Shown: piece by piece, positions 38,024-58,734 of the stretch
Position numbering within the stretch: position 1 is the first letter of the stretch
Layout: every line of letters begins with the position of its first letter
IMG/VR virus record: IMGVR_UViG_3300044675_005263
Location: 1-64,000 of that record
Strand: one strand, 5' to 3'
Origin: a virus
DNA: 64,000 nt
The notes under the pieces: generated by a model
The model's database searches: none
What the model was told of the DNA's origin: nothing
What the model saw: the letters and a program-made list of their open reading frames with translations, nothing else
Made by a program: the position numbers and the translations under genes

Positions 38024-38115
38024 ACCTCTAAAGATACCTTGATCGGTGAACCCTGATTTTTACCCCCATACAATAGAAAAACCCCCACCTCTCGGCAGGG
38101 GCTTCTCTCTACAAG

Positions 38116-38451
38116 TTAGGCAAGGTTTTCGAAGTAATGCCCTTCGTGCTTCCAAACTGTCTTATTCGCTAGAAGGCTACTCGCCCAGTAATCGAAATTA
38201 AAGTAGCGAGCTAGAGTTTCTATCTGACCATTTCCGCCTGAATTGAGTAGCCCAATTCTGTCGGCATAGTTCTCGGCGAAAGTTCTATCGCTTCCGTAAT
38301 AACCTAGATAGGTATTCTCTGCGTCTTGTGCAAAGCTTTCCCAGTTCGCTAGAGATAATCCGTATCCCATAGCGTAAGTGCTTAGAACCGCAAGACTCTT
38401 GTCTGCTTGTTCGATTGCTTCTTCAATCGCTTCAAGATTTGCAACTGTCAT
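38116..38451 (-). CDS. ArdA-like antirestriction protein (C-terminal part)
   Basis: YLGYYGSDRTFAENY..LARYFNFDYWASSL..GHYF pattern, acidic. Confidence 0.6.
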   Translation of the reverse strand: MTVANLEAIEEAIEQADKSLAVLSTYAMGYGLSLANWESFAQDAENTYLGYYGSDRTFAENYADRIGLLNSGGNGQIETLARYFNFDYWASSLLANKTVWKHEGHYFENLA

Positions 38452-38583
38452 TTGTTTCCCTTGTTAAGTGGTTACTAGAACCAAGTAGATTTATTGTAGT
38501 CGATTATCCTGACATTTGCAAAACGACACGGCAAAAGAAAAACCCCGCATTCCTGCGGGGCTTCTCCTTGATCCTTTTTACCT

Positions 38584-38892
38584 CTAGGCGTATTCCTTAA
38601 GTTCGGATAGTCGGCGAGGTGTCCAGTTAATATCACGCTCGACCGCAGGAATTTCAATTCCACCCATTGAAAGTTTTAGACTCTGCAACTCGCTAAGGCT
38701 GAAATACCCCAGCTCTTTCTCAAAGCCGTGAACCATTCCGAAGAATAAATCTTCTCCATCAAACTCCATAGCAAACCAAGTCCAGCCACTTCCCAAAGCA
38801 AAAAACTTAGCGATAATCATTGGGTCTTTTACTTCTTCATTTGAGTAAAGTGCTGGCAACTTCTTGCGTAGTTCTTTAGTTAGTAGTTCCAT
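38584..38892 (-). CDS. DUF2958-like protein
   Basis: KFFALGSGWTWFAME..LFFG..ELGYFSLSEL..VERD. Confidence 0.8.
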   Translation of the reverse strand: MELLTKELRKKLPALYSNEEVKDPMIIAKFFALGSGWTWFAMEFDGEDLFFGMVHGFEKELGYFSLSELQSLKLSMGGIEIPAVERDINWTPRRLSELKEYA

Positions 38893-38964
38893 TTTTTAAC
38901 TCCCTAGTTCTCCAGCTCCCTGCTGGTGTCTTAAGTGTAACACATCTTCCTGACTTTTTCTTCC

Positions 38965-39219
38965 TTATCGGGGCTCTTGATTTTCCTCGATTAAAAACGC
39001 AAACCCTGCGCCATTTCCTTCCTCATCTTGAGAGAGGACTAAACCTAGTCCATTATCAAATTCAAGAATAGGAACAGCGTGGTGATTACTAAAATCCCAG
39101 CCCATAAGTTCTTCGGCTTCTTCTTCGGTAGCGCTTCTAATACTTACGAGCTTGGCACCTACCAATTGTCCCCACTCTTTATTTAAATACTCGGTGAGCT
39201 GAATTGTGTTATTCGTCAT
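38965..39219 (-). CDS. Hypothetical protein (SQDEEGNGAG motif)
   Basis: GGGGTAAAAAAATG context. Confidence 0.75.
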   Translation of the reverse strand: MTNNTIQLTEYLNKEWGQLVGAKLVSIRSATEEEAEELMGWDFSNHHAVPILEFDNGLGLVLSQDEEGNGAGFAFLIEENQEPR

Positions 39220-39274
39220 TTTTTTACCCCTCTTGTCGGTTTAGGTCTAGCTTATCTGATCTCTATAATAATTC

Positions 39275-39380
39275 AAAATAGACACACCGCACCCTTGCTA
39301 GGGAGAGCAAGGGACGGTGCGATAAGCACAAGTGCTTATCTCAACGGGGAGCAGAAAGGGAAGTTCGCTCGACCCGGTGA
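39275..39380 (-). ncRNA. Candidate three-hairpin small RNA with UCCCU loops
   Basis: TGA-TAAGAT -10 at 39385-39393; three contiguous stems; U-rich end; no convincing ORF. Confidence 0.6.
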
Positions 39381-39419
39381 TCTAATCTTATCATAATCGG
39401 TGTAACTACTTTTTTACCC

Positions 39420-39725
39420 CTAGCCATTAAAACAATCGGGACACTCTACTTCTCTAGTAGTCCCAGCTAGTTCTGCTTTCATTTTTCCAGCACCGTAACA
39501 AGTCTCGCAGTTCGGGTCGCCTTCATCAAGAATTCCTATATGGTTTGAAACAGACTCAACGTCCCAACCGTAGTGCTCCCTCATCAACTGACTAGCTACT
39601 CTAAGACAAGCGTCCTCGTAGACTTCGCCATCTTTTACCCCTTCTTCGGGAACGCCTACCGTAACCATCATTGAGAAATAATCCCCAATAAACATAACGG
39701 TGCGAGTATCCATAACCTTATCCAT
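39420..39725 (-). CDS. Hypothetical protein with CxxCxGxG..CxxC zinc finger
   Basis: CETCYGAG, CPDC. Confidence 0.7.
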   Translation of the reverse strand: MDKVMDTRTVMFIGDYFSMMVTVGVPEEGVKDGEVYEDACLRVASQLMREHYGWDVESVSNHIGILDEGDPNCETCYGAGKMKAELAGTTREVECPDCFNG

Positions 39726-39815
39726 TTTTTACCCCTACCTAATTAGTGTGAGCAGTTTAGCAACTTACTCAGGTTGTTGAGACGGCGACTAGTCTAGTGT
39801 GCAACCGCCTCAAAC

Positions 39816-40136
39816 TTATGCGTAGTCCTCGTCTGTCCCATACCCTGCGCTCGCAAGAGTATCGGCATCTGCTTCTACGTCATTCATTTCGTAAGCCTCT
39901 TCGTCCATTCCGAAAGCAATCTCAGCGCTGTGCCATTCTCCCGTTGCTTCGTCAAGGATATTCTCCTCAATACTCCAATCGGCTTCGTCCCAGCGAACCT
40001 CGTCCTTCATAACCTCGGCGATTTTATCTACGAACCTCTGCATAACCGCTTCGGCTTCTTCGGCACTATTAGCAATAATCTCTACCATTGAGATAGTAAG
40101 GGCTTGCCCTGTGCAGTAATACTTATTTTTGTTCAA
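39816..40136 (-). CDS. Acidic hypothetical protein
   Basis: Promoter 40165-40183; ends DTLASAGYGTDEDY. Confidence 0.75.
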   Translation of the reverse strand: MNKNKYYCTGQALTISMVEIIANSAEEAEAVMQRFVDKIAEVMKDEVRWDEADWSIEENILDEATGEWHSAEIAFGMDEEAYEMNDVEADADTLASAGYGTDEDYA

Positions 40137-40195
40137 CTTCTTCTCCCTTGTTTGTTGTATCGGTATCCTATCATACCTTCCTGCATTTCGTTAAA

Positions 40196-40780
40196 TTAGA
40201 AACCTCTCGGTGGTCTTTTAAACTCTCGATCTAAAACTTCTAGGCTGAGCAACCCACCTTTAGAATAATCTCGGTCAAGTCTTGTCGTTCCTTTTTTTCT
40301 TTTGAGCCTATTTTTCTCACTGTTGGCTCTATTACAAGTTATGCAGTATCTACCTTTATAGAGTTTTCCAGTAGGTTGAGTGCTCCAAGTAGAAAGAGAA
40401 AACCCTGTATTTCTTGAATTGTATTCGTGTCCTTGAGGGCAGTGAGTGATTTTTGCGTATCTTTCTTTTGAAACTATTGCGGTGCGAATAAAACCTTTTT
40501 TGATCGCTTCTTTTCTAACCAACTTTTCTAAGTGATAAGGATTAACACACTCGGCAATACCGCAGGTCGGCATTAGTATTTCTAACTTAGTGGGGTAATT
40601 TTGGTCTGAATTGTATGCTTGCCAGAAAATAAATCTCGGGTTCATTCTATAATTATGGTCTTGATAGAAAGGAACATTGGTGTTACTAGTCATAGCCCCT
40701 AGCCATAGCCAGCAATTTTCGGTTGTCCATTTATTCGGTATTAAAACTTTTTGTATTAACTCTTTACTTCTAGTAGGCAT
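40196..40780 (-). CDS. HNH (His-Me finger) endonuclease-like protein
   Basis: CWLWLG, C..AECVNPYHL, KITHCPQGHEY..RYCITC; the usual catalytic His before TC appears replaced. Confidence 0.7.
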   Translation of the reverse strand: MPTRSKELIQKVLIPNKWTTENCWLWLGAMTSNTNVPFYQDHNYRMNPRFIFWQAYNSDQNYPTKLEILMPTCGIAECVNPYHLEKLVRKEAIKKGFIRTAIVSKERYAKITHCPQGHEYNSRNTGFSLSTWSTQPTGKLYKGRYCITCNRANSEKNRLKRKKGTTRLDRDYSKGGLLSLEVLDREFKRPPRGF

Positions 40781-40850
40781 CTTTTCCCTTTTCTCTCACT
40801 CCCTTAGTGAGTCCCTTTGAAAACCAAGTTTATCATACCTTCCTGCATTT

Positions 40851-41529
40851 TCATACTTTAGGGCAATCGGCATAAGGGTTTTCACTTCCCTCGTTGTCCT
40901 CGCAACCGCACCAATTAAATCTTTCTACCTGCGTGGCGTGAGTTAGTTCTGCCAACTCTCCCCAACTTATAGAGTCTTGACTACATTTATGATCGTGTCC
41001 CAAGTTTAGTAGCGTTGTATTTTCATCGGTGTTTAGCTCTTGATCACACTTACCGCATAGCGGAATAATTTTTTCCCTCACTGCGCCACCTCGCAATCGT
41101 GTCCGTAAGCGTATGCTTCACGAGTCATACTTACGCCACACTCTACGCATTTTATTAGCCATACATCTTTAGCGTAATCATAGTCGTCCGTTATTTTCAT
41201 TTTTTACCTCTCCCTAGTTATGGACTCGGTGGGGAGTCGTATTGTTTCCGACCCTCTAGAGTTCAAGCCGTTCAGGTGTCCAGCGACTTCCCCCCACCGA
41301 GATACCTCAATCCTATCATACCTTCCTGCAAAAACAAAACCCCCACGCCATAAGCGTGAGGGCTTGCCGTAATCTTTTTACCCCGCTAAATAAACTCGGT
41401 CAAGTCCCTATCACTTATCTCGCTTACATCTACGCCTTCGGCTTCAGCGATAGCGTCCCAGAGATCAGCTTCGGTAAAGTCCCCCTCGGGCTTCCACTCC
41501 ATAAGTATAGATAGATAATCTTTCCCCAC
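40851..41529 (-). CDS. Three tiny ORFs (40851-41081, 41078-41200, 41386-41529)
   Basis: RBS or overlap coupling; two are Cys-rich. Confidence 0.55.
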
Positions 41530-41533
41530 TTTT

Positions 41534-41917
41534 TTACCCCTCTCCCTCTTCATCTTTTATAAGGGTGAACGAAAACCCAGCGCAATACTCGTCGTGGCTT
41601 GCTCGTGTTGCCGTAAGAACGGTGCCTTCTTGCTTGAACCGTAGAGTAAAGTCCCCGTTTATCTTTAGTGTGTCTAACACTTTATCGAAAGACACTACGG
41701 CTTCCCCTCTAACTTTGTCCCAATTCATATTGCTTCCCGTAATTCTTACGGTATTCCAATCCACGCCAACCGTCTTACGCCAAGTGTTCATCATATCTTT
41801 GAACAACCATACCGAGTCCTGCCAGCAATCAAAACAATCGGCGCTAGGCGTGCCGTCCTCGTTGGTGCAAGTGCAATCGCTTTTCATCTCAAGCGTAATC
41901 TTTTCCATTGTGTCCAT
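41534..41917 (-). CDS. Hypothetical protein (start MDTMEK)
   Basis: Promoter 41953-41971. Confidence 0.7.
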   Translation of the reverse strand: MDTMEKITLEMKSDCTCTNEDGTPSADCFDCWQDSVWLFKDMMNTWRKTVGVDWNTVRITGSNMNWDKVRGEAVVSFDKVLDTLKINGDFTLRFKQEGTVLTATRASHDEYCAGFSFTLIKDEEGEG

Positions 41918-42097
41918 TATCTTGCCTTTCCCTAGTTTGTTTGAACAAGATAATCCTATCATACCTTTCTGCAAATAGGGCTCTTCAACTCCATATTGTT
42001 TTTTCCGGGTCCTCTAGCTTCTCGGCCTGGATCCTTTTTTACCCCTCGCCACAAAAAAGAAAAACCCCCGCCGTAGCGAGGGCTTCTCTTACTTCCG

Positions 42098-42379
42098 TTA
42101 CGCCTTGCCACCTCGTTTGCGATAGCGACCCAACGCTTCATCTAGTGTTGAGCAGTAATCACCGTTTTGAGCAACGAACCCGTTTTCAGTAGCAAGGACA
42201 TTCCATACTACGAACGGCATACCTTCGATAGCAAAATTGACGAATACCGCTACCCAAGAGGCATACAATCCCTGTGTCCGTTCGCCTGTCTTTGTAACCG
42301 CTATGGCAATACGCTCGTTGATAAACTCGCCAGCCTTGAACTCAATCAAGTCTTTAGGCACTTCATTTTGTGTAAGCAT
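42098..42379 (-). CDS. Hypothetical protein (start MLTQNE)
   Basis: Promoter 42417-42435, AAAGGGAG RBS. Confidence 0.7.
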   Translation of the reverse strand: MLTQNEVPKDLIEFKAGEFINERIAIAVTKTGERTQGLYASWVAVFVNFAIEGMPFVVWNVLATENGFVAQNGDYCSTLDEALGRYRKRGGKA

Positions 42380-42546
42380 TTCTCCCTTTCTTACTAGCCG
42401 TCTTGCTAGTGGAGCAAGCCTATCATACCTCTCTGCACTTTCATAATCGAACCGCTTCCTGGATCCTTTTTTACCCCTGCCCCTTGCCAAAAGAAAAAAC
42501 CCCCACCTTTCGGTGAGGGCTTTTGCCTTGCTAAGTAATAGGGAGA

Positions 42547-42942
42547 TTACTTTGCGGTTAGGACAGGATACTCCGTAGTCTTTGCTACCAAGTCAAAAAT
42601 CTCTCGGTAGTCATTGAACAAAATATCTCCGTCAAAATCGGTGCGTTCCCTTAGGTCAATCTTGACTCGTTCCTCGCCAGCGACAAGCCCAACTTCTGCT
42701 TCGCCAACCCACTTATCTTTCTTATTGACCTTTATTTTTTCCCAACCCATAAGGGCGTAAATCTCTGCCTTGATTTTTTCCAACTCGGCAGTTTGCGCTG
42801 AAATCGTTTCAGAAATAGTTTTCTTTTTTGCGATTAGAGCGAGGACATTAGTTTCATCTAAAACTACTGCCTTCTTTGTTGTTGTTGTTGTTGCTACTGA
42901 CTTTACTTCTACTACTTCGTATGATACTTCGGTGTTAGCCAT
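42547..42942 (-). CDS. Coiled-coil hypothetical protein (start MANTEV)
   Basis: AAGGA RBS, terminator downstream. Confidence 0.7.
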   Translation of the reverse strand: MANTEVSYEVVEVKSVATTTTTKKAVVLDETNVLALIAKKKTISETISAQTAELEKIKAEIYALMGWEKIKVNKKDKWVGEAEVGLVAGEERVKIDLRERTDFDGDILFNDYREIFDLVAKTTEYPVLTAK

Positions 42943-43062
42943 TTGGCGTTTCCTTTTTCTCTTTGTCTTGTGTAAGTCCGAGCGATTTACCCGAACAAGT
43001 AGAACAATACACTCATCATAACCTTTATGCAAATCGTGGTGAGCGTGTCGTCAAATTATTTT

Positions 43063-46000
43063 TTATTGAGCCTCTGCGTGTTCGTAGAGTCCAGTATAGA
43101 TAATTACCTGACCTTCATTATCGTAGTCATATCCCACTCTTTGAGATAGGGCTTCTACTAGGTATGAGGTAGAGATAGCCCAGCGTGAGAACGCATAGCC
43201 AATTCCCCCACCAATAATCATCATCAGTAAAGTGAAACCATTGAAAAACATTTTTACCTCTTTCCCTTCGTCATTTGGTATTGCTAGGCAAGCCTATCAT
43301 ACCTTCCTTCAATTTTCGACAATCTCCACCTCAAACTCGGTAGAGCGTGCAAGGTCGTGTCCATACTCGTTTTGTAGCCAATCAAGGGCTTTTACCTCTG
43401 CCTCTCTTTGAGTATCGGCTTCTAGCTCCGTTCCAAAATGAGATACATAAGTAGCCTTCCAACTCTTACTCATTTACAACCTCATTTACTAAATCAACAA
43501 AAAGTTCGGCGGCATCACTCTGAAAACTCCACTCGCCGTCATCATACTTAGCAACAACTTCTCCCCATTGAGTATCCGTTAGTTCTTTCAGTTCGTCAGT
43601 TTCGTGGTCGTAGGCATAGTCCTCTACCGTTTCCTTATCCCAATAGGCGACTATCAACTCTTGCTCGCCGTCATACGCTTGCAACTGCTCAACCAAGTCT
43701 TTGACCTTCATGCCGTTACTCCCTTATCTTGATCCGTTTTTACCCCCAGCGTGTCTCGCCGTGTAGGTCTAGGCTCGTGTGCGGAGTTTGTTCCATCCCA
43801 TCCGCACACATCACCACCCGTTAGGTCTACCCACCAGCCAGCCTTATCTAGCCGTATGCCGTAGCCACAGAACTTGCATAGTCTCATTAGTAAGAGGCTC
43901 CTAGTTTGTCGGGATTATTTACTGCGTATTCCACGCCGTTATCGTATCCAGCATAATAAAGACTCTCTAGCCGTTCGGCTAGAACCTTTACCGCCTTATC
44001 CATATCGGACATGCTTGCCTCGAAATACATTATTTCCTCGGCTTGTTCTTTTACATCTTTACGAACTTGTTTTTTTGTTCTCATCTTTGTATCACCTCCG
44101 TCATTTGTTGAGCAAGTTTATCATACCTTTTGATTATTCTGTATCTTTTTCTTGACGGATAACATTTACTGCGTTCATAAAAGTTTCTGCTCGAACTTGA
44201 TTGAAAACAAAGTCGTTCGTCCAAAGTCTAAGAAACCTTATCCATTGTTCTTCCGTGATTTCATATCCGAGTTCAGCTTCGACATCTGACTTACACCAAA
44301 CGCCCCAATGAACAAGTTCATTTGGGTCAAACTCCTGAGCAATAAACTCAGCAACTTGATCAGCGGTGAGGAACTCAGCATCTTCTTCTAGTTCTTCATC
44401 ATCTATCTCTATGTTATTTTCATCTTCCATTTTTTATATCACCCCCTTTTTTTCATCTCAGTTTTACCCCTAGTTCGTGCCGACCCAAGTTATCTAAAGT
44501 TTCTTGGGCAATCTCGATAATCCGTTCTAGGATTTTCGGAGAAATCATATGTTCCAACACGACAGGCTCCTCGCCTTCTGTGTGGTCATGGACAAAGAGA
44601 ACAACATTTCCTGCTTCCGAATAGCCGAAGCCAATCGGATAGGTAGAGGTCATAAAATCTAAGTGCATGGTGTTATCAGACATTGGTGCTATCAGGGTTC
44701 CCTTTGGTAGAACCTGCTTTTTGACTTTTGCCATTTGGCTTTTTCCCTTCGTCATTTGTGGAAGTATCATAGCAGTTTTAGTGGTGGAAATCCACCGCAA
44801 CCATAAATTGTTTTTTTGGGTCTTTCTCAATGCGCTCGTGTAGGTATTGCAGATTTGCGGTGCCAGCCTCTAGGTCAAACATGGCACTATCGTAAGTCCA
44901 GTAGTCGGCAAGTGTTGAGCCAATGGTTCGCAAGTAATGACCGTCCATGCCTAGATTATAGTTATTGACTATGGGTTTGTAATCGGCAATTAGATCAGAA
45001 ATGTTCTCTCTACCTTCTAAGTAAGACAACGCTCTTTTCATATTGGCAACTCGGTATTCAGAGAACTCTTTTATCACTTCGTTCCACTTCTCAGGGTCGT
45101 TAGAATAAAGAATTACATCTGGCTCTCCTTCTCCAAAGAGTCCAGAGAAACGCCCACCTATCTCAGACCAATCAGACCAACTTGCCTCATCAAGTCTGCT
45201 ACCAACTGCGTCAATAGCGTCTTGGTGGTTCTCAGCTTCAACAAAAATCAACTGCACACTATGAGACATTTTTACCCCTACACCTTTCCCCAAGAACGGG
45301 CTTCGGTGTAAGGCTCTGCAACATACTCAGCCCACTTGATTAAATCACGGGGAAACTCACATAGGGCTTCTTGCTCTGCCAACTCTATCGCTTCGTCCTC
45401 TGTGTTGGCTTCGACTTCATAATAAATGTTGTTGTCCTCTGAGAGATACCCTCGCACTATCCATTTCTGCTTTTCCATTTTTACCCCTCTTGTTCGCTTT
45501 GTTCTAAGTTGGAAATGATTTCCTCAGGCGACATAAAATCTAAAAGGTCTAGGTGTGAAGTAAGTTCTACAACTTCGCACTCTCGGCACTCCTCTATTCT
45601 TTCCAGCCTTCTCAGCAGGGCTTCATCTCTTAGTGTTAGTTCCAAACCTTCCTCTATCTTGGAAAAAATAACTCTCATCTGTAAATGAAATCTTTTCATA
45701 TAGTCCAAAGAATTTTGGTATAACTCATTTGAAACTATGTCGTTTTCTTTGAGAATTTTCTCGTTGATTTTGCAGGTAGGTATCCACACAGTTTCATTAT
45801 CTATGATTAGTTGATAGCCATCATCAGAAGTTTTCTTTGAGATAGGTTCGTAACTGTGTCTGACTCTGCTAACTGCCATGCTGTGAATACGAGTTCTCTT
45901 TTTCATTTTCTCCCTTTCGTCGTTTGATAAAGCCGAGCCTATCATACCTTTCTGCTAATCCAAAACTAGAATTGCGTCTTTCTGCAAAATAGGTTTTCCC

Positions 46001-46849
46001 TCGTTCTCAATGTCGCAAACATTTACTATGTGTTCAGCGACAACCACCTTCGCACTTTCTACTGCTTCGTCAATGGTGTGGGTAACTTGATCTAAATGGT
46101 TGCCATTTTGGTAGAGGTCAAACCAGTTGTTATGCACCCAGTAGTAATCCTCATCGTCGTGGGTTGCTTCAAGCTTCTCGTCCGAGTCTAAGTCCGAGCG
46201 TATGAAATCATTTGGTGAGCAGAGGTCATAGTAGTAATCCTCACCCGCTTTGTATTTTAGGTGGGTATCCCCGTCAGCATAAACATCTACTTGGTATCCG
46301 TCTATCTCTATGCTTGCAACCCAACCACGGTCAAAGAACACGCTCTCTGTCCGTTTAGGGTGAGGTGTTTCGTTATAGACAATCTTGTATTCATACAGAC
46401 CCGACTCCACGGTTTTACCCCTCGCCGTTTGCTTGCCGTAAGAACTCGCCAATCTTGTCCGATAGGTCATAGTCAAGATCAACTTCGGCAGGGTCGTCAA
46501 AGTTAGTAGTTCTCCAAACCCCCTCACCAGTTTCAAGGTTGGTGTATTCATAGACCACGCCGTCTTGGAAGTGTGCGTTTAGTGTTTCGTCCTCGGCACT
46601 CCACTTCTTTGTTTCCGTGTTGTATGAAAGTAGAAAATGTATCTCTCTCATTTTTTACCCCCGCTCAATCGAATAAACGAGTTTAGTTAAATCTATGCTA
46701 TCTCTCTCGTCAGGGTGTATTAACTCTGCCCACTCATCTCGGCAATCAAGGCAGACCCAATCAATCCAATCCGAGCCTGTATCTATTACTAGGCAGTTCT
46801 CGGTATCGCACTCACGGCAAGTCAAGCCGTGAAAAACTCTTACCTGCAT
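43063..46849 (-). CDS. Run of 13 small, mostly acidic ORFs (43063-43251, 43309-43473, 43466-43711, 43708-43887, 43887-44084, 44134-44430, 44453-44734, 44778-45269, 45278-45478, 45481-45906, 45955-46410, 46415-46651, 46655-46849)
   Basis: Head-to-tail ORFs with RBS or overlaps; no family recognised. Confidence 0.65.
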
Positions 46850-47140
46850 TTTTTCCCTTTCTCTCTTTGTAGCCCAACCCTATCATACCTATCCAAATAA
46901 TCATAGTAGGAACTCTGAATTATTTTTTCCTAAATGCACTCCTGCACCTCACGCTCAAAAAATTAAAAAAGGTGGCGGTCTGCCCGGAAGTAATAATTCA
47001 CACTTGCCGTAAAGCTTCACGATCAAAATTTACCCCCACAAAGTGAAAAGCCCCACCGAGTAGGTGAGGCTTCTCTAGTTTCTAATCGGGGCGACACATG
47101 CTGGGAAAAATACATACCCAATTAGAAATCCTATTCTAGG

Positions 47141-48919
47141 TCAAGCGACCTGCCTTTGCCCTGCGGTTGAGAGGACTCGCTCTGCGGTTCGCCCAATAGC
47201 CAACGCCGACTCTGTGGGGCTGGTAATCCCTGCCACCACCTGAGCATTTACGCCCTTGCAGAGATACTCTGCCTGTGCGCCTGAGTCGCCAATCGGAAGC
47301 CATAGAACTGCTACGCCATTTCGGGTGCAAGCCTTTAGCCAACGCTGAGCCAATTCGCTTTCCTCAGGTGTGTAATGTCCGTCCGACACAACCACGAGTA
47401 AGCGAGCGCCAGTTCCATTGAGAAGGTTGAGTGAGCCGTCCAATGAACGAAATGCTCGGTCGAACTTTTCAGTTCCGTCAGGTGCAGAATAAACTGAAAC
47501 TTCTTTTAGTCGCTGACCTGCTTTGAGTGTTGGGAAAACATCTGAGCCGTAATAAACCATAGCGCATTGACCCTGAACTCTACGAACTGCCTCAGACATA
47601 ATCCATGCAGTAGAAGCCATTGGTTGCATAGCACTAGACATTGACCCTGAAATATCAACCATTACTCCAACTGTGAGTGTTGGTTCGTCTGTGTGCTTGC
47701 GAACTGTTTTGCGAAAAGCCTCTGCTTGCTTATGAACTCCACGAGAAGCAAGTGCCTTGCTCTGAATAATTGCACGAGTGCGTAATCTCCCCGGAGGTGT
47801 AATGCTATTTACTTCTGTAATGTCCTTCTCACGATACTTTGCCTTTTCCAATGCACGAGCAATCTTTACTGTCGCACTTCTTTCAGAAGCAATAGGCGCT
47901 CTTTTCTCAATCAACTTAGAGGCAGTTCGGAATTCTCCGGGACCTGAACTCTTTGAGAATACTTGACGAGAGATTTCCTCATTTTTCTTTTGCTCTTTAG
48001 AACTCATTGACTTCTTTTCAGCAGACTCTTTCATAGCCTCTGAACTCTGTTGCTCTGATAAATCATCTGCAACATTTTCAGAAACTTCTGAGTCCATGTC
48101 TGCCATGAGTTCGCTCATCATCTTTGCGAAGGCTTCCATTTCCTCAGGAGTAGGTTCTCCCTTTTCTTTCTTTGCTTCTCTTACCAACTCAGCCCACTCA
48201 ACTGCTAATGGGTAGCAAGGAGAAATATCATGGTGGCGAGTGTGGCTTTGGAACTTCTCAATAATCGCAACCAACTTCGCAACTAGGTCAGCACCTAGAA
48301 AATCATTTACTTGCTTGATTAAATCTGTCGCTTCTGTTTCTAGTAATGACCCTGCAACGATACGAGCATGAGCCAATCCCACCAACTGGCAAGCAGACCC
48401 AACGCTAGAATTCTCTGCAAAAGTTTCTTTCGCTTCGTCAATAATTAAACCCATAGCACTTGCTCGTAGAAAGTTCTTTGCTCTAGGCATAGCAATAATT
48501 CCCTGTGCCTCAATGCGACCTTCCTCTAATAACATCAAAGCCTGAAACTCATCTTGCTTTAGGTCTTTAATTCCCTGAGCCATATCCCAAGTAGAAAACT
48601 TTGCGTGGAAGGCTTCGTGCATAATCGCACCAATCGCTTTTGGAAACTCGAATTGGTTGCGTGGCTTTGTAAGGTCGTCAATCAGATTAGGTGTAATACC
48701 TTCTCCAAAAGCCTCAATCGTATTTACCTGCACCTCAGCAAGTGAAGGGATAAAGCAAGCAGGTGCGCCTTCACCTTTGTCTGTGCCAATGCAAGCAACA
48801 ATGTCGCTTCGCTCAGACCACTCATTAACGAGCAATCCAATTTCGTATCCAACTGGTAGCCACTCAGTAGGTGTCTTGACCCCTGAGCCTTTTGTTTCTA
48901 GTGGCTTAATGTGTGCCAT
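47141..48919 (-). CDS. CobT-like VWA protein with N-terminal HExxH domain
   Basis: HEAFH..LEEGRIE, MIDAS DISGSMS, VVSDG. Confidence 0.8.
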   Translation of the reverse strand: MAHIKPLETKGSGVKTPTEWLPVGYEIGLLVNEWSERSDIVACIGTDKGEGAPACFIPSLAEVQVNTIEAFGEGITPNLIDDLTKPRNQFEFPKAIGAIMHEAFHAKFSTWDMAQGIKDLKQDEFQALMLLEEGRIEAQGIIAMPRAKNFLRASAMGLIIDEAKETFAENSSVGSACQLVGLAHARIVAGSLLETEATDLIKQVNDFLGADLVAKLVAIIEKFQSHTRHHDISPCYPLAVEWAELVREAKKEKGEPTPEEMEAFAKMMSELMADMDSEVSENVADDLSEQQSSEAMKESAEKKSMSSKEQKKNEEISRQVFSKSSGPGEFRTASKLIEKRAPIASERSATVKIARALEKAKYREKDITEVNSITPPGRLRTRAIIQSKALASRGVHKQAEAFRKTVRKHTDEPTLTVGVMVDISGSMSSAMQPMASTAWIMSEAVRRVQGQCAMVYYGSDVFPTLKAGQRLKEVSVYSAPDGTEKFDRAFRSLDGSLNLLNGTGARLLVVVSDGHYTPEESELAQRWLKACTRNGVAVLWLPIGDSGAQAEYLCKGVNAQVVAGITSPTESALAIGRTAERVLSTAGQRQVA

Positions 48920-49146
48920 GTCTTTTGTCCTTTTCCCTTTTAGTTTTGTATCGTGTGTCTAACGATAGGTCTATCATACATTTTTATTTATCTATATGCA
49001 ACTTTAGGTCTATCTGTGTCTAGGTCGGAAGGTGTGAATTTTGATCGTAGGACTCAAAGCTTCCCCTCGCTTTTACCCCCTTTGGTTATGGTGAGGACTC
49101 CACCCATGAAGCCCTCACCCAACCAAGTCAGCAATCTAATAGGGAG

Positions 49147-50205
49147 TTAGATTTTCGCTGGCTTATGCTCAGCGCCATAGGCACGAGCAATAACATCAAC
49201 CACCACATCTCTATCTAACTCAGGTGCGCTCGCAATCAAGTTAGCGATAGCAAACTCTGTGCCAAATAGTTCGGCAGTAGAACGGAAAGCAAGCAACTCT
49301 CTCATCTGAGGCGACCAAGAAATCTCGGCGCTATCGCCCTGAGTTCTCTTAAACAAGTTCTGAGCAACGCTCACCATTGTCTTTGGAACTCCCAACTTCT
49401 CAGCCAGTTTCCAATCTGTGGTGAGTTCTGCCTGAATTGCAAAACGAGATAGCAACGCTTCTGAAAGTCGAACTCCCGGAGCGTTAGGGTTGGTTGCACC
49501 CACTACGAAAAAGTTAGGGTGGATTTTGATAGTTCCTCTATCAGGGTTCATTGGAATTGTGAATTCCTTTCGTCCGTCCATAGCACCATAAGCAAATGAA
49601 AGAACTTTAGGGTCAATCAAACCAATTTCGTCAATCAAAAGTGGTTCGCCATTTTCTACTGCCTTTGTAAATTCTCCGTCAATCCACTCAAAGTTTCCAC
49701 TAGGTGTCTGAACGAAACTTCCCAAGAAATCTGAAACTTCTGTATCTCCACTTCCAATAATTGTGTGGAGAGTTTCATCAGCAAATGAAGCCTCAATGAG
49801 TGCAGTTTTTCCAGTTCCCGGAGCGCCATAGAGAAGGACGAACTGTGGGTCGCCAACTCCTTCTGAATTGTATTTTGAGGTGGCTTCTCTCGCTTTGCGG
49901 AGAACTGCTATGTCCTTATGAATTCCCCATTGGCGAGTGAAATACTTTTGTCCATTAGGACGAACATAAAATTCGTCAGCCTCGAAAGACTCGACATTTA
50001 CTTCACTAGGACTCATAGCACCAACTCTCTCTTTGGCTTTTCTGTCTGCGCCACTTGCTCGCTCAACGAAACGACCATTAGGTAATACTTTTGCATTTAG
50101 TCGGAGTGAAGTTTCCTCATGCACATTTTGCACTATGCACTCTGAAACGATATTCCAAAAGTCGCCCCCAATAGAAGCCAAACTCTCTTTGATAATTGTA
50201 TCCAT
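49147..50205 (-). CDS. MoxR/CobS/CbbQ-family AAA+ ATPase
   Basis: GAPGTGKT, LLIDE, IHPNF.VVGATNP, LSEALLSRF. Confidence 0.85.
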   Translation of the reverse strand: MDTIIKESLASIGGDFWNIVSECIVQNVHEETSLRLNAKVLPNGRFVERASGADRKAKERVGAMSPSEVNVESFEADEFYVRPNGQKYFTRQWGIHKDIAVLRKAREATSKYNSEGVGDPQFVLLYGAPGTGKTALIEASFADETLHTIIGSGDTEVSDFLGSFVQTPSGNFEWIDGEFTKAVENGEPLLIDEIGLIDPKVLSFAYGAMDGRKEFTIPMNPDRGTIKIHPNFFVVGATNPNAPGVRLSEALLSRFAIQAELTTDWKLAEKLGVPKTMVSVAQNLFKRTQGDSAEISWSPQMRELLAFRSTAELFGTEFAIANLIASAPELDRDVVVDVIARAYGAEHKPAKI

Positions 50206-50217
50206 TTTTATTGCCCC

Positions 50218-50673
50218 CTAAGCAATCTCAACAGGAAAGCCCAATGCTTTTCTGCTTTGGTTGATACGATAAACAACCTTGATAGGTGTTTCTCCCTTTG
50301 ATACTTCTGCCAAATCCTTCTGAGAAGTTTCGACTAGAAATGGCTCATTAACAATAGTCCAACCACCTTTAATAAAACCCTCGAAAATAGAAGTCAGATT
50401 TTCTATGCGCTTCTCAATGTAGGTTTCTCTATCTGAGTCAGCCAAATCCTTCACGCCAATTTCAGCGAGTTCTGTGGCTGGTCGTAGTGTTGTAGCAGAC
50501 CACAACTTCTTTGGTTTATCAGCAGATAACATGCGACGATAAACCTTTGCTGGAACTGGATTTCCTTCGGGAGAAAATCCGTCAGGAGTCATAAAGAACT
50601 CTGTGCGAAATCCCTCTTTAGAGAACTCAGCATAAACTGTGAGTCCTTGCACTTGCTTTGTTTTGTCTAACAT
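50218..50673 (-). CDS. Hypothetical protein co-transcribed with the AAA ATPase (start MLDKTK)
   Basis: AAAGGA RBS. Confidence 0.7.
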   Translation of the reverse strand: MLDKTKQVQGLTVYAEFSKEGFRTEFFMTPDGFSPEGNPVPAKVYRRMLSADKPKKLWSATTLRPATELAEIGVKDLADSDRETYIEKRIENLTSIFEGFIKGGWTIVNEPFLVETSQKDLAEVSKGETPIKVVYRINQSRKALGFPVEIA

Positions 50674-50833
50674 GGGTGTCCTTTCGTCGTTTCGCACCCC
50701 CAAAGTGCGATAAGGCAACTCTAGCAGAAAACATCATAGAGGCAAAATTAGCCTAAGCGTGTCGTAAAAATAGTTCTGCCCCAACGCTAAAACGACGAAT
50801 AAAAGCGTGGGGCAGAATCTTGTTTTGATCGTA

Positions 50834-51431
50834 TTAGGAAATAGAGATTTCCTTTACGATTTCAGGGTCAGGGGTAAAAACTGGCTTCTCCTTATGAAGC
50901 TTTAGTCCAAATTTCTTGAACTCTTTATTAAAGGCTTTATCCTTCTGTGGTCGTCCTGCTTCTACCCACTCGGAAATGACTCGAGCTGCTAGATACCTTT
51001 CCTCGTCCTTTGCTTCCATGACCATAAGGAAGTCCTCCCGGATCCACGCACCAGTTCCAATCACCGTTATCTGATTGGCGTTACCGTAGTTCCCGTCGAT
51101 ATCGAAATAATGTAATCTCATTTTTTACCTCTCTTGTATTCCCACTCCGTTAGGGTAGCACGCCCAGACATTTCCATCTGGGCACGCCGACCTCGAATTA
51201 TTTTTTCCGGGCTTTCTTCAGCATCTTGGATATTTTCTTGAGTTCGTCCTCGCCAAGTTCCACGCCGATTTCGTATGCAACATCTTTGGCGTATCCGTTA
51301 TCCATGGACTCTTCCAACTCCGCTTTATAGATTGGGTCAAGCCCGTTCATGTCCTCGTCGTCAAAGATATAGGCGGTGTCCGATAGGGCGAACCAAGTAT
51401 CCGTTCCAGTATGGCAAACATATAGGGTCAT
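50834..51431 (-). CDS. Two hypothetical ORFs (50834-51121, 51198-51431)
   Basis: GAGGT RBS. Confidence 0.65.
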
Positions 51432-52033
51432 GCCGATACCTCCGCTTCCTCTTCCTCGTCCTCTTTATAGTTAGGGCAATCCGAGTAGTAAGAACATTCC
51501 TCGGGGTCTTCAACGCATGGACATTCCTCGCCCATCTTCTCCCAGCAAGCGTGGTCAATCTCGCCACCCTCTTCGCTGAACTCCTCGCCGTTCTGGTAAA
51601 TAACAATCCCCCAGAAGCACATGCCAGTCTCATTGTATTTGTGTTCAATACAAAGAGTAGGGAAGATTTCGGCAAGCCGAGCAATCGCTATATCTGGTGG
51701 AGACCAAGCCGAATCAAAAGAGTAGGAAAGTGAATCAGTAGATTCGCTGAAATAAACTGAGTCCTCGCCACAAACATCCCACTTAGTTCCCCAAGAGTTG
51801 ATGTGGTTGTGATACCAGTCCTCGTCTCCTTGAGACCTAAAAGCCTCTCCAATTCTTGGCTCTGCATCTTTTGTTGGAGTAGTGATGTTGTAAAGAGAAA
51901 AGATTGGATTTGCAATCTCTTCAACAGTTCCTTCAATGGTTCGCTTGATTGGGCGACCAACAAACTCCTTAAGATTTTTTAGAGTCTCTTGGTCCCCGGA
52001 AATGTTTATTGTATTTGAGCACCAGTTAGGCAT
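51428..52033 (-). CDS. DUF1281 / YubB ferredoxin-like protein
   Basis: MPNWCSN, WGTKWD, FDSAWSPP. Confidence 0.8.
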   Translation of the reverse strand: MPNWCSNTINISGDQETLKNLKEFVGRPIKRTIEGTVEEIANPIFSLYNITTPTKDAEPRIGEAFRSQGDEDWYHNHINSWGTKWDVCGEDSVYFSESTDSLSYSFDSAWSPPDIAIARLAEIFPTLCIEHKYNETGMCFWGIVIYQNGEEFSEEGGEIDHACWEKMGEECPCVEDPEECSYYSDCPNYKEDEEEEAEVSA

Positions 52034-53212
52034 TGTTCTCCTCGTGTTCTATTACAGATTGAGTTATCTCTAACCCAAGAGCCTGAATCTCTTTTCCCAA
52101 ATCGTCAATCGCTTCATCTATGTTTTGACGAACATCAAAGTAATCCCATGGATTTTCGTCAGTCTTTGGTGAGCGAATGTATTGCAAATCAACTGCACAT
52201 GAGACAGCAATGTTGATTACCTTGATTGCGTTCTCATCACCAGCCAAATACTTTTCTGCTAGTTCTTGATACATGTTTTCCCTTTCGTCATTTGTAGTTT
52301 TATTATAGCGATTTACAATCGCTTATTCAACTTCCACCACTCGGAAGTTTTCATCTTCCAAGATAGAAACGCTGAAGTCCAAGTCAATCCCTCTATTGCG
52401 CTCCCCAACTTCAGGGAGGTCGTTGATGTTGATTTCATCATCCATTACTTGCTTTAGAAGAGCCTTTGCCTCTTCATCATTCTTTGCCTCAAACCAAACT
52501 TGGTTCATTGAGATTTCGTTGAATCTAAACGAGTATTGCATTTTTTCCCTTTCGTCATTTGTGGTGTTGGGGAACGAGTTTTTGTTCCTAGGACTTCAAC
52601 CCTATTCAGCATCAGCAAATAGAATCTGCCCCAACAAGCCAAACTTATCATACCTTTCTAGATAAGTGCAACAACACGCCAGAAAGTTTTTGACACTAGA
52701 CATCTTGGTAAATGAAATTGTTTTTTCCCGGCGACCTGGTCCCTCCACACTGGCAACAGCGAATTATTATTTCCGGGTCCAGGGCCTGGCCGCCGACGCT
52801 GTCGCTAAATTATATTTTCCGGGGTGTCATCATTTGCTGCATCAACGATTCTTGTGCGTGCAACTGCAACATCATAAAGTTCGTTGTACTTGACCAAGTT
52901 GTAGATGTCCTCGCAGAACATCTCGGCGGCAGCAATCTGGAGTTCGTCATCCGTCATTGTTATTTCCGGGTCTGTCTGAAGCTGGTCGAGATCGAACTCG
53001 AGTTCTATTTTCGTAACTAACTTTCTTGTCATCCGTTACTCCTCACACTCGCAGAGATGTCCACAGGTATAGCAGACCCACGCCGTTGTCAGGTGGGTGT
53101 AGTACCCATATCGTCTCTCGCCGTGAAATCCTTCAGAGTAGGCGTACCAACGCCCGTCATCTTCCTGAAAGGTGGCTCCGTCTATCTCTCGAGTCTTTTC
53201 TAATGAAATCAT
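52026..53212 (-). CDS. Four small ORFs (52026-52274, 52323-52541, 52805-53032, 53036-53212)
   Basis: RBS-preceded acidic ORFs. Confidence 0.65.
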
Positions 53213-55312
53213 TTTTTACTCCGTTTCTATTAAAGATACGGCGCACCCTTGCCGTGTCACTGCACGAACTTAAAGGGCACGCCGTAATATCTATTTGTTT
53301 TTTAAATTGCTTCTTCCAAACTGAAAGGTGCGCTCGCCGTCAAGCCCGTTGCGTTGCGGTAGAGCCGTGCCCCTTCTTGCCAGTCAGCCCACGAGCCGTC
53401 CGAGCCGATGCTCACCAAACTTCCGTATACCTGCTTGAGGTGAATGAGGCAAGCCGTTACTACAGCGTCGTATGGTTTGTATGCCGTCTTTGTAAACCCG
53501 AAGCCCGATGAGTTGATAGACCAGTCAAAGGTCTCGTGTGAGTCTGGACCGTAGCCGTTGAAGCGGACACTTTCTTTTGTGCATTCCCACTGGCCGAGAT
53601 GGTCGCCCATTGCATCGGCAAGTTGAATCTTTTCCACGTTGGTGGCGTATTCAATAATGGTCCGAGCCCCGTTCATAAACATTTCAAATCTCAAAGCATC
53701 TTCTGGTGAGGTGCCTGTTTTTGTGTAGTAGTGCGTGTATCCCACGGTGTTCCCTTCGTCATTTAGCAGAGTGATTTCTGCTGCAGGATTTATCATAGAG
53801 GGTCGTTTCTTTCTGTGTCAAGTATTGATGAGAAGTATTTCTAGAGTCGACCTATATCCAAAACGGGCAAAACAAATTGTTACTTCCGGGAGGAGGCGGC
53901 CATCCTGGATCCGTCTTCTTGAAGTTGTTTGTTCCGGGCTTGATGCACTGCAGCTGCGGGCTCTAACGTCACATTATATTTTCCGGGCTCCTGGATCCGA
54001 GCTCGGTCCCTCGGTTTTAAAGTTGAGTCGACATGACTCAAGTTTGCAGTACTTGCATTAATCCATCGATGAGATCTGAAGTGCAGCGCAGCTGTGATCC
54101 GCTGTCAAGTTGTTATTTCCGGGTACCGTATGTCCGCTTTGCGAGCACTTGCTCGCAAAGTCTAATCACCCTGTCAAGTGCTTGTCAAGCTACACGCACC
54201 GTTAAGTTATTTGTTCCAGGCATCGAGCTACAAGCTGCGTCCCATAACTCACACCGTTATATATTTGCGAGCGCTATACCCATGCCGCTCTTTGAATCCC
54301 AAGCCGTTTGCAAGCTGCAGCTGTAATCCCAAGCCGATGTTTTATTTTCCGGGCAAAATTCTTCGGGCCCGATCCGTCTTCACGTTTGTATTGTATTTTC
54401 CGGGACAGCTGGACCTGTTGGTCCCGTTGGTCCCGTTGGTCCTCGCCGCTGCGGGTTATATTATATTTTCCGGGCTTGATGCAAGCACGCCGCCTCCGCC
54501 TCCACCGCCGCCAGTGTATCTTGCCGCTGTCGTCAAATTATATTTTCCAGGCTGGAGGAGCTGCATCCCGGCCCTGGCAAATAGATTTGTTTTTTCCAGG
54601 TGATCCAGATCCATCCTGGCACGCCGCCGTGCTCAAGTCAAGTTATTAGTTCCGGGCATCGGATCTGCAGCTGCTGTTCCCATCTGAGTTGTTAGTTCCC
54701 GGACCAATCCGATCAATACGATCAATCCGATCAAAGTTCTCTATATAGAGTAATTTCTTATTTAGAATCTGGCCAGGTAACGAAGTTTAATCAAGTTAAT
54801 CCTATTGATCGGTTTGATCACGCTTAGTTGGATATCCGTCATCTATTCGATTCAGGCGTACAAGGTTAGAATTAAGTCTGTCCGTCAACTTCGGATCTGC
54901 AGCTAGCTACACCCGGAAGTAACAACTTAGATAGATGGCGAGGAAGGCGAGGAAGGTTTTCAAAAAGCTCACCGTTATATATTCAGGCGTCCCTATCCCA
55001 CGCCGCTAGTTGAAACTTCAACTACTCGTGGGTAAATAACAATCTGCGATTCCCTTGCCGCTTGCCGCTTTGATACTTGACAACCGTTAATATAACTAAT
55101 ACGCTATCCGTTAGCGTATTGGTTATATTAACTACAAGCGCACGCCGTTTCGGAAGTTAGAGTTGTTAGTTCCGTTAGGAGCTCTGCGGCAGCATTTGCT
55201 CTCGCCGTTACTCGGATGTGTTCTTCCCGTGTCTTGGCTAAATCAATATCCGCTTTCAAGCTCGCCGCTAGCTCTGCAGCTAGCTGCAACTGTAAGTTGT
55301 TATTTCCCGGCA
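52715..55312 (+). repeat. Dispersed array of AT-rich + TTCC(G/A)GG repeats, densest at 53875-54705
   Basis: About 18 copies, e.g. TTATATTTTCCGGG, nearly all in one orientation, mostly in non-coding DNA. Confidence 0.8.
53302..53745 (-). CDS. Conserved-looking phage protein (GTG start, MGYTHY..FNG..HETF..KTAYKPYD)
   Basis: GAAGGGA RBS before GTG 53745. Confidence 0.7.
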   Translation of the reverse strand: MGYTHYYTKTGTSPEDALRFEMFMNGARTIIEYATNVEKIQLADAMGDHLGQWECTKESVRFNGYGPDSHETFDWSINSSGFGFTKTAYKPYDAVVTACLIHLKQVYGSLVSIGSDGSWADWQEGARLYRNATGLTASAPFSLEEAI

Positions 55313-55313
55313 T
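55128..55313 (-). CDS. Small helical hypothetical protein
   Basis: Overlaps end of upstream gene. Confidence 0.5.
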   Translation of the reverse strand: MPGNNNLQLQLAAELAASLKADIDLAKTREEHIRVTARANAAAELLTELTTLTSETACACS

Positions 55314-56238
55314 CTGGATCTGGCCCGTCTTCCTCTTTGGCTGCGGTTGTTATGTCATAGACATCCGATACCTCGGCGTCAATTATTTTTACCCCGTCGT
55401 TGGCTAAGTTGCTTGCCGTATGTGCAGCACCTGCCGCTAGCCGTTGCAAACGTTCAGCCACGATAACGTGAGCTGGCCGCTCCCCAGAAATATCAACTCC
55501 GATATCCAGCTCGGTCCCGCCTCGCACGCCAGCACGGTCAAGTAGTTCCGTTGCTGCTTTGAGCTGGACTGGTTCGGATACTGCGTTCTCCATCAGTTCC
55601 TCGAGCTTATCCACAGCGTAGCTTGCCGATTGCATAATCTTGATTCGTGCCCGTTCGACATCTGCGCCCGGCCGTCTGATGCCTTTAAGGTGGACACGAC
55701 ACAGACCGTCATCTTTAACACGACCTGAGCCCCACAACATACATCGGATGCCGTCTGACTTAATCTTGGTACAGCGATGAGGCATAGCCGCTGGCGCTCG
55801 CTTTGAGGATTTCGGGCCAGTCTCTTGTTCTGCTTGCCATGTTCGGGTGGCGCCGATAACCCAAGGTGGGCAAATCTTTATAGCATCGTCATCGAGGAGG
55901 AGCTCGAGGCCCGTCAGGAAATCCGAGTTATTATTTCCCGGATCTAACAATAACGGTTTCTTCTCGGCCAAGCTCATCAGCCGCCTTTCTTTGATGGCTT
56001 CTTGTGAGCGGGCGGCAATCAACCCTGTCGGGGCGCCTGACTGGTCATAGACCGAATCCCAGTTGAGCATCGCCTTTCGAAGGGCGGCTCGATTCTCATA
56101 AGTATCTTCTACAACTCCCTTTTCAACTTCGAGCATGCCAAGAGCCGAAAGGTCAGGGCGATAGTCGATGGGGGTATCTACAACTGGTGTTGTATCTTCC
56201 GGGCCATCTTCAGGATCGAAGGGGGAGATGTCTGTCAT
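55300..56238 (-). CDS. Putative terminase small subunit
   Basis: C..C..CxxH Zn module, then AVDKLEELM..VQLKAATELLDRAG and IIDAEV tail typical of TerS-like proteins. Confidence 0.55.
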   Translation of the reverse strand: MTDISPFDPEDGPEDTTPVVDTPIDYRPDLSALGMLEVEKGVVEDTYENRAALRKAMLNWDSVYDQSGAPTGLIAARSQEAIKERRLMSLAEKKPLLLDPGNNNSDFLTGLELLLDDDAIKICPPWVIGATRTWQAEQETGPKSSKRAPAAMPHRCTKIKSDGIRCMLWGSGRVKDDGLCRVHLKGIRRPGADVERARIKIMQSASYAVDKLEELMENAVSEPVQLKAATELLDRAGVRGGTELDIGVDISGERPAHVIVAERLQRLAAGAAHTASNLANDGVKIIDAEVSDVYDITTAAKEEDGPDPDAGK

Positions 56239-56715: not shown

Positions 56716-56948
56716 GTATTACTCCATATCGTCAAACAGGGTGCTTGACATATGAACAATAGCACGATTAGGGGTAAAAAGATTTTTGCGCCCGTTGAGA
56801 GAGATACAAGGTGTTTTACCCTTTCATAAACAACACTTGGTTTGAGCGTGTTGAACTACGCACGGATTAGGGGTCTAATTACTGTTTCATCATAGAGGTT
56901 GTTGTACAGAAAGTTGTGTAAGTTGTTATATAAAAGTGCTTCTGAAAG

Positions 56949-57021
56949 CGCCCTCGGCAGGAGTCGAACCTGCGGCCAATCGGGTAGAAACCGAGTGCTC
57001 TATCCTCTGAGCTACGAAGGC
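56949..57021 (-). tRNA. tRNA-Arg(UCU)
   Basis: GCCTTCG/CGAGGGC acceptor stem, anticodon loop TT-TCT-AC, GCAGG-TTCGACT-CCTGC T-arm; CCA not encoded. Confidence 0.9.
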
Positions 57022-57474: not shown

Positions 57475-58710
57475 TCAAATGTCTTCTACTACTTCATCGA
57501 GTTCAAACTCTTGACCTTCAACATAAGGCTTGTCATTGAAACCGTTTCTATCTGTTGCTAGTTCACCGTTTATTATATCTATAGCATGGCGTAGTCCAAG
57601 GGTGTAGAGAGTCTTGTCTTCATCACCATAAAGAGATTCCCAAAGGTTGATCTTGTCATTGAGTTGTCTTTGAATATCCATCTGGGCATCATCAATCGCC
57701 ACACCTAGGTGCGTTATGATTTTCATAGTTGCCTCTGTAGATATCTTACTTCCAGCCATCATAGAGTTAGTTACTTCTATAATTGGATTCGTAATATTGT
57801 CTTTAAGACTCATCAGACTTCCTCTCTACACTTTTGGCATAAAAATCTATCGTAGCCTTCCGAGGCTCCATCGAAAACTAACTTTCCAGTTTTGGTTAAG
57901 GGTACTGGATAAATCTGATGTTCGTCACCAGTAGCATCGCAACGGGCGCATGTTCGTTCGATCAACCACTCTGCAGTTGCTTTCTCTGGCATATTACGCA
58001 ATCCACGAATAAGTGCATGTAAAGCTCCACCACCCTCAGTTCGTCTAAGGAATGTTCGAGTATCACTTACAAGTAGAACAGGTAGAGGTGCTCTGCAAGC
58101 ACAACTCATTCCACCGTTAGGTTTACACAAGTAGCCGTCAGTTGGTCCTGACTTCCAAGGAATATCTTTTGGCTCAGCAGGTTTTTTGTGTTTGTTAATT
58201 GCGTGACCACAAATGCAGACTCTCCTATCTAGAGGTCCACCCTTTCGCTGTCTGTCATCAAACTCATCTACCTCATTAGGGTCAATACCCATCTGGGCTA
58301 GAAAATCATTGGGGCTACTCATAGATCGTCTCCCTCAGTTCTCAGTTGGTGGATGATTGAGGAAAACTTTTCTTCAGTCTCCATTTTCTCATGCATGTGC
58401 ATTAAGAACTCTTCCATCAACTTCATTTTCTTTCGTCGCTCCATAGCTCTAAATAAAAGCAAAGTTAGGTAGGTTGTCATAGAACAAACCCCACCCATAA
58501 CAGATCCCAATACAATTAAGTCCATCTGTGTCAATGTCATTCCGACTCCTCAACTAGTTCTAGAAAGGTTTTAAAAACTCCAACCAACTCTTTGACATCA
58601 TCTCTGAGCTTCTTACTTTCAGCCGTTAAATCTTTTATATCCTTTTGCATTCGCTTAATCTCTAACTCAACTCGAGTCAGTCGCTTTGCAATCTCTTCGT
58701 CTTTCGTCAT
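57475..58710 (-). CDS. Four hypothetical ORFs (57475-57813; 57813-58322 Cys-rich; 58319-58540 membrane; 58537-58710 coiled coil)
   Basis: Overlap-coupled ORFs. Confidence 0.65.
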
Positions 58711-58734
58711 TACTTCCTCACTTTCATCCTAGAG

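Follow-up and report, generated by a model that had tools for sequence, protein, structure and literature searches.

An oversized terminator loop complementary to a recurrent leader box in a lake phage genome, and its possible action on early translation

The c4 RNAs of phages P1 and P7 and the CI RNA of phage P4 come from the same transcription units as their targets, and their exposed segments pair at or next to the ribosome-binding site. Among the small RNAs (sRNAs) that act from hairpin loops without Hfq, such as RNAIII of Staphylococcus aureus with its 3' hairpins and the actinobacterial 6C RNA, C-rich loops pair with the G-rich Shine-Dalgarno core, and loop-seed pairing of this kind would suit a host phylum without Hfq. 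The enterobacterial sRNAs derived from 3' untranslated regions (UTRs), such as CpxQ and SroC, have their seed upstream of the terminator and depend on Hfq and RNase E. The c4 antisense RNA is mentioned in PMC8198154, and pairing of the 5' and 3' UTRs within one mRNA has been reported for icaR of S. aureus, through the 3'-UTR segment UCCCCUG (PMC3868564), and for hbs of Bacillus subtilis, over 14 bp (PMC5737220); in both, a motif at the 3' end pairs with the leader close to the Shine-Dalgarno sequence and affects initiation or RNase access (PMC3868564, PMC5737220). The present analysis concerns a terminator hairpin in the first 64 kb (the whole stretch that was analysed, hereafter the window) of the 105-kb IMG/VR virus record IMGVR_UViG_3300044675_005263, whose loop is complementary to a short box standing directly before the ribosome sites of eight leaders on the strand that encodes it. 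The anatomy, orientation, conservation and complementarity of these elements, together with one compensatory change, suggest with a probability of about one half that the terminator loop and the box next to the ribosome site pair as RNA, most likely lowering translation.

The locus shares part of its design with each of these systems. As with c4 and CI, a phage RNA from the transcription units of its targets is predicted to pair beside the ribosome-binding site; the c4 RNA is processed by RNase P, whereas the element described here is the loop of an intrinsic terminator, with several dispersed candidate targets and a probable actinobacterial host. A reading of the window from the sequence only had likened the arrangement to P1 c4, and the likeness in regulatory logic stands. 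Membership of the C4 family does not, since a search of positions 38000-56000 with Rfam cmscan (E<=1) gave four weak unrelated matches, none of them at the hairpin and none to C4 (RF01695) or 6C (RF01066), and since the analysis found a single complementary segment, the loop at 50789-50803, in place of the two of C4. RNAIII and 6C likewise present the seed in a hairpin loop, terminator hairpins included, and pair it with the region of the ribosome site; unlike theirs, the loop here is U-rich and would pair mainly with a box just upstream of the Shine-Dalgarno core. Like CpxQ and SroC, the putative regulator would come from the 3' end of an mRNA and share its terminator, by a processing that is hypothetical here; unlike them, it has only a 16-nt 3' UTR before the hairpin, and the seed would be the terminator loop itself. 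An icaR- or hbs-like contact between the two ends of one mRNA is a live variant, since a box also heads the operon closed by the hairpin; the differences are that the motif lies in a terminator loop, that the target box is common to eight leaders and that the covarying partner belongs to the next operon. No described case was found that joins a terminator-loop seed, a leader box over many early units and an actinobacteria-type phage as carrier.

The hairpin lies on the minus strand at 50774-50817 and is made up of a 5' arm (50817-50804), the 15-nt loop UUUAUUCGUCGUUUU (50803-50789) and a 3' arm (50788-50774) with one bulged U. Its G+C-rich stem of 14 bp and the anti-box UUCGUCGUUU at 50790-50799 agree with the first description, which had given a stem of about 14 bp with the complement of the box in the loop. 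The predicted energy is -23 to -24 kcal/mol, with the loop open, and the loop is the sole inverted copy of the box in the 105-kb record. The hairpin begins 16 nt after the stop codon of a 95-aa gene and is followed by the U-tract CUAUUUUUAC (50764-50773, minus strand), which occurs on the gene strand only and whose T-run is nearly invariant in relatives. A G+C-rich hairpin that closes a gene at its 3' end and has CUAUUUUU after it on the transcribed strand is the arrangement of an intrinsic (Rho-independent) terminator. As conservation of the T-run is limited to the gene strand, the hairpin is judged to be an intrinsic terminator of minus-strand transcripts, whose RNA would hold the anti-box. 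A role as a plus-strand element was rejected, a conserved U-tract being absent from that strand in the relatives, and the alternative of expression from the plus strand only, raised together with the first description, is answered in the same way to the extent that sequence alone allows. Three other strong terminators nearby (42090, 41365 and 42524) have loops of 3-4 nt, and a terminator loop of 15 nt is unusual for this phage. A simple terminator scan admits loops of 3-8 nt, so that this hairpin is not among its calls.

The complementary box is strongly over-represented. The pattern TYCGTCRTTT has 10 matches in the window against 0.60 +/- 0.78 expected (17-fold), a number reached in 0 of 100 shuffles. 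These matches comprise eight leader copies, the opposite-strand copy in the loop and one further copy at 39212 on the strand of the leaders; the last was rejected as a leader box, as it stands in a start-codon context with no ribosome site after it. Leader-type copies are restricted to leaders, and the 105-kb record contains, outside 43-54 kb, neither a further exact copy nor a further leader-type copy with up to one mismatch. All eight leader copies read AAAYGACGRA on the minus strand and abut AGGGA, GGGAA or GGTGA without a gap, the start codon following 9-15 nt further on, in agreement with the earlier claim of eight boxes directly before the Shine-Dalgarno sequence. Four of them precede the genes for a 62-aa protein (box 43267-43276, gene 43063-43251), a 65-aa protein (variant AAATGACGGA at 44097-44106, gene 43887-44084), a 93-aa protein (box 44748-44757, gene 44453-44734) and a 141-aa protein (AAACGACGAA at 45916-45925, the second C variant, gene 45481-45906). 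The box at 50683-50692, also AAACGACGAA, lies in the leader of a 151-aa gene (coding sequence 50218-50673) and is the covarying partner of the loop, and the box AAATGACGAA at 52284-52293 lies in the leader of the early operon that runs from 52274 down to 50834 and ends at the hairpin. The remaining two precede a 72-aa gene (box 52551-52560, gene 52323-52541) and a 147-aa gene (box 53755-53764, GTG at 53745), the latter with TTGACA-N18-TATGAT and a 5' hairpin upstream. Throughout the record, every ACGAARGG that precedes a start codon has AAAYG in front of it. A look-alike, TAATGACGAAAGA (58703-58712, minus strand; 1714 in relative L008), is conserved as well, and is the start of a coding sequence (ATG ACG AAA GAC ...) and no leader box.

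A promoter-like element stands upstream of each box, namely TTGACA-N18-TATGAT (53821), TATAAT (52302) or, at the others, AGGTATGATA, and a small 5' hairpin directly precedes several of the boxes. Between the -10 element and the box there are 8 to more than 28 nt, and between the box and the ribosome site none. Because the former spacing varies while the latter is fixed at zero, the box is assigned to the RNA leader, and a role as a promoter element was rejected on the same grounds. The ATG and TGA within the box were rejected as start or stop codons, the AAAC variants lacking both. In predicted leader folds the boxes are mostly unpaired (0.53-0.99). The same geometry bears on the suggestion that the box is a double-stranded DNA site, bound by an asymmetric regulator just downstream of early promoters, with the loop copy as an inverted site. 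On DNA both orientations would indeed be equivalent, and the phage does have further dispersed repeats with the look of protein-bound sites; yet all eight boxes share one strand, zero distance to the ribosome site and a variable distance (8-28+ nt) to the -10 element, the core common to loop and box is only 8-10 bp, and one box has changed together with the loop and the others have not, which fits wobble pairing and not a shifted protein specificity. A DNA site is thus very unlikely. The element AGGTATGATA recurs ahead of box leaders (43290, 44120, 45940 and 52660 in the window; six copies in L008) with no clear -35 element and may form a separate promoter class.

Relatives were sampled as 45 IMG/VR loci through the AAA_5 ATPase encoded downstream of the hairpin and as 28 metagenome loci through the 95-aa protein. 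The alignment from the hairpin to the next leader, termed A3, holds 22 distinct sequences (the window and 21 relatives), and its tree has a total length of 2.0 substitutions per site, 5.2% of which falls on the terminal branch of the window. The hairpin is found at the same position in every clade locus with at least 72% ATPase identity and nowhere else. In A3 its stem has 15 pairs, which are paired in 98.1% of cells, and two-sided changes are seen in 7 of the 15. Averaged over columns, identity reaches 0.93 in the loop and 0.996 in the box, compared with 0.84-0.88 in the stem arms, 0.84 in the promoter and 0.61 in the spacer. Moreover, the box is invariant where the triplet that follows it, nominally the ribosome site, varies between AGG, AAG, ATG and ACG, which argues that loop and box are each under sequence-specific selection and that the box is not conserved merely as a ribosome site.

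Searches beyond this clade yielded no second example. An IMG/VR scan with the loop pattern gave 68 matches, 12 of them in a hairpin and all 12 from the same clade, the others being chance A/T-rich matches. A covariance model of the hairpin (R1), run over 620 kb of the window and its relatives, detected neither additional nor diverged copies. In distant relatives, none of the anti-box 8-mers on the gene strand lies within a hairpin, and 9-mers counted over whole distant genomes stay at control level. The idea that distant relatives have box/anti-box pairs of their own, sought as repeated 9-mers with one inverted copy, was rejected; their repeated 9-mers (GCAAAAAGTA, CTTCYAACG and TATTCATTT) are dispersed arrays or coding repeats and no leader boxes, and the inverted copies lie outside hairpin loops.

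Within the clade, the complementarity of loop and box was scored on A3 as a pseudoknot. Eight contiguous pairs are complementary in 22 of 22 sequences, and the loop, predicted to be open, presents a conserved seed that matches sites in ribosome-binding regions. The observed values were reached in 0 of 500 shuffles, and slid controls collapse. One pair changes on both sides, being A-U in the 21 relatives and G-C in the window (box 50683): the box has a single substitution (U to C) and the 8-nt loop core likewise a single one (A to G), and the two lie opposite each other in one pair and both on the branch of the window. The chance of such a coincidence is 0.052 x 0.1 x ~0.5, or ~0.003, by the author's estimate. 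Covariation of box and loop among related phages had been set beforehand as a test of the pairing, and the relatives' alignment thus provides one compensatory change, a single event in the window lineage. The earlier remark on wobble is also correct, position 4 of the box (C/U) lying opposite a loop G and position 9 (A/G) opposite a loop U. Two of the eight leader boxes of the window, where the loop has G, are C boxes (two of nine motif copies), compared with one among all those listed for the relatives with loop A; the loop G would explain why the window phage alone tolerates a mixture of C and U boxes.

In the proposed mechanism, the oversized loop of an early-operon terminator would expose an anti-box of 8-10 nt, which would pair in early leaders with AAAYGACGA(A) where this is single-stranded, between the 5' hairpin and the ribosome-binding site. 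Since the GAA at the end of the box belongs to the extended Shine-Dalgarno helix GAAAGG, pairing would be expected to be in competition with the 30S subunit and to reduce translation; the loop-box duplex could in addition form a target for a double-strand-specific RNase. The best supported partner is the leader of the operon encoding the 151-aa protein, the ATPase and a VWA protein, 105 nt downstream of the hairpin. Terminated upstream transcripts, or 3' fragments of them, could act on this leader in trans, or the loop could act on it in cis within read-through RNA, and action in cis is as likely as action in trans because the covariation concerns only this leader. The other box leaders would be weaker, possible targets.

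Another conceivable partner for the loop would be the box at 52284 in the leader of its own transcript, a 5'-3' contact within one RNA that would control translation of the first gene or shield the leader from RNases. For this, the operon closed by the hairpin starts with a box leader in the window, in 25 of 26 clade loci a box stands 1.1-1.8 kb upstream of the hairpin, and the Gram-positive mRNAs cited above are precedents (PMC3868564, PMC5737220). The box that covaries is nevertheless the downstream one, while the operon's own box has stayed AAAU and would make a weaker G-U pair with the window loop; furthermore, locus L126 keeps the loop with no box within 6.3 kb upstream of the hairpin. 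Such an intramolecular contact is considered unlikely.

Several observations weigh against pairing between loop and box. The covariation consists of one event and is limited to the leader 105 nt downstream of the hairpin, and 7 of the 10 pairs never vary and are hence uninformative. The predicted duplexes are weak (about -11 to -16 kcal/mol, some of these energies being inflated by a few stem bases), short and A/U-rich; a 10-bp helix within a closed 15-nt loop would be sterically strained, and a C at loop column 28 leaves 9 bp in most relatives. Genome-wide, a duplex scan places only the two AAAC boxes near its top and the six AAAU boxes outside the top 25, and six of the eight boxes pair with the window loop only via a central G-U. 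The sliding duplex-energy scan was rejected as a discriminator, the AAAU boxes being inseparable from background. Exceptions also occur among the relatives: locus L049 combines an AAAC box with loop A, and the subgroup of L015-L017 and L125 retains the loop after losing the adjacent leader box, with three other boxes remaining. In L015-L017, L125 and L127-L131, about 50 nt before the homologue of the 151-aa gene, the box has decayed to GAACGACAAAG, followed by a long AGAGAGAAAGAGAGAAAATG purine tract, and the loop is unchanged. Finally, distant relatives retain one or two boxes, ahead of orthologous genes, and lack an anti-box, and a complete distant genome of 137 kb has the box with no anti-box on the opposite strand. 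Because distant relatives carry the box in this way, it is probably older and more widespread than the loop, with a function of its own.

These last observations lead to the strongest competing explanation, in which the box is an autonomous leader element (a ribosome standby site or enhancer, or a site for an RNA-binding protein or endoribonuclease) inherited with promoter-leader cassettes, and the loop is conserved for some other reason, for example as a protein-binding RNA loop, so that the complementarity would be incidental. The box precedes non-orthologous genes and persists family-wide in orthologous leaders; its last bases belong to the extended ribosome site ACGAAAGGA, a consensus shared across the family; and both its occurrence without an anti-box, in a complete genome among others, and the weakness of the predicted loop duplexes would be expected. 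What this explanation leaves unaccounted for is that the complement of the box lies in the only terminator with a large loop, that the loop core is invariant inside a changing stem, and that the sole change in the box and the sole change in the loop core are complementary and on the same branch. This explanation appears rather unlikely, though less so than the intramolecular contact or a DNA site.

The sequence-only reading had gone further than pairing at one leader and proposed an sRNA of ~45-60 nt, derived from the 3' UTR, that represses a regulon of all eight box leaders. Neither such an sRNA and its repressive effect nor a regulon of this extent was established, the regulon in view of the low duplex rank of the six AAAU boxes, the box without an anti-box in the distant complete relative and covariation confined to the adjacent leader. 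An RNA-only feedback, in which the terminator loop would serve without Hfq as a multi-target antisense for the box at up to nine early units and, with the accumulation of early RNA, shut down or rebalance early translation, can be put forward only tentatively.

The surroundings of the hairpin are well defined. The four-gene early operon that it closes (50834-52274, minus strand) encodes proteins of 82 aa, 201 aa, 77 aa and 95 aa. The 201-aa protein (51428-52033, minus strand), which starts with MPNWC, has an Api92-like DUF1281_C ferredoxin-like domain (E 2e-11), and in several relatives its gene is the first after the box. The downstream operon (47141-50673, minus strand) encodes the 151-aa protein, the AAA_5 ATPase (49147-50205) and a 592-aa VWA/CobT-like protein (47141-48919). 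The probable promoter of the 151-aa gene, assigned by consensus, lies at 50718-50745 (minus strand) and consists of TTGCCT, a 16-nt spacer and the extended -10 element TGCTAGAGT; across the relatives it follows TTGCYT-N16-TGnTAnnnT, with TG.TA...T and TTGC.T invariant or nearly so (A3 columns ~101-130), and a TATGAT just upstream may belong to the spacer and not be the -10 element. Between this promoter and the box, immediately ahead of the latter, is the 5'-proximal leader hairpin CGCAC-UUUGGGG-GUGCG (50693-50709, minus strand), in whose place the relatives have a different covarying stem.

The 5' hairpins that precede boxes (50693-50709 and 53765-53784; A3 columns 131-161) have the G-rich loops UUUGGGG, GUAGGG and UAGGGAA, and their stems differ wholly between lineages yet are always paired. 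These small hairpins may be stabilisers of the 5' end or targets of proteins or sRNAs. In addition, many sites of 15-17 nt resembling CCCGGAAAATATAAT occur in a non-coding stretch of 1.3 kb (53880-55200, minus strand) upstream of the first box leader, and also after some early genes (52715-52825 and ~51205); the relatives have other repeat words in the corresponding places, namely GCAAAAAGTA, CTTCYAACG and TATTCATTT. A second class of ribosome site, (A)GGGGTAAAAA before ATG, differs from the box leaders; it is found 14-17 times in each 21-kb locus of L008 and L011-L017 and may mark another temporal class of genes. A tRNA-Arg gene (anticodon TCT) is located at 56948-57021 on the minus strand.

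The record to which the window belongs has a CheckV completeness estimate of 79%, and its close relatives are genomes of ~135 kb with direct terminal repeats. No match was obtained by Megablast against phage records. Among named records, Actinomycetia phage DSL-LC01, metagenome-assembled and of lake origin, comes nearest, and Microbacterium and Gordonia phages come after it. Since these nearest records are actinobacterial phages, the host is most likely a freshwater actinobacterium.

Gene regulation in phages of such lake bacteria is little known. The element could be tested by synthetic RNAs and reporters without culture of the host, and it would be worthwhile to screen oversized conserved terminator loops in other phage genomes for regulatory seeds. 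Should the pairing prove real, it would represent a compact post-transcriptional circuit, defined by sequence, in large phages of lake bacteria (probably actinobacteria) that are abundant and hard to culture, a circuit in which a transcription terminator would double as a regulator and one short box would connect many early genes.

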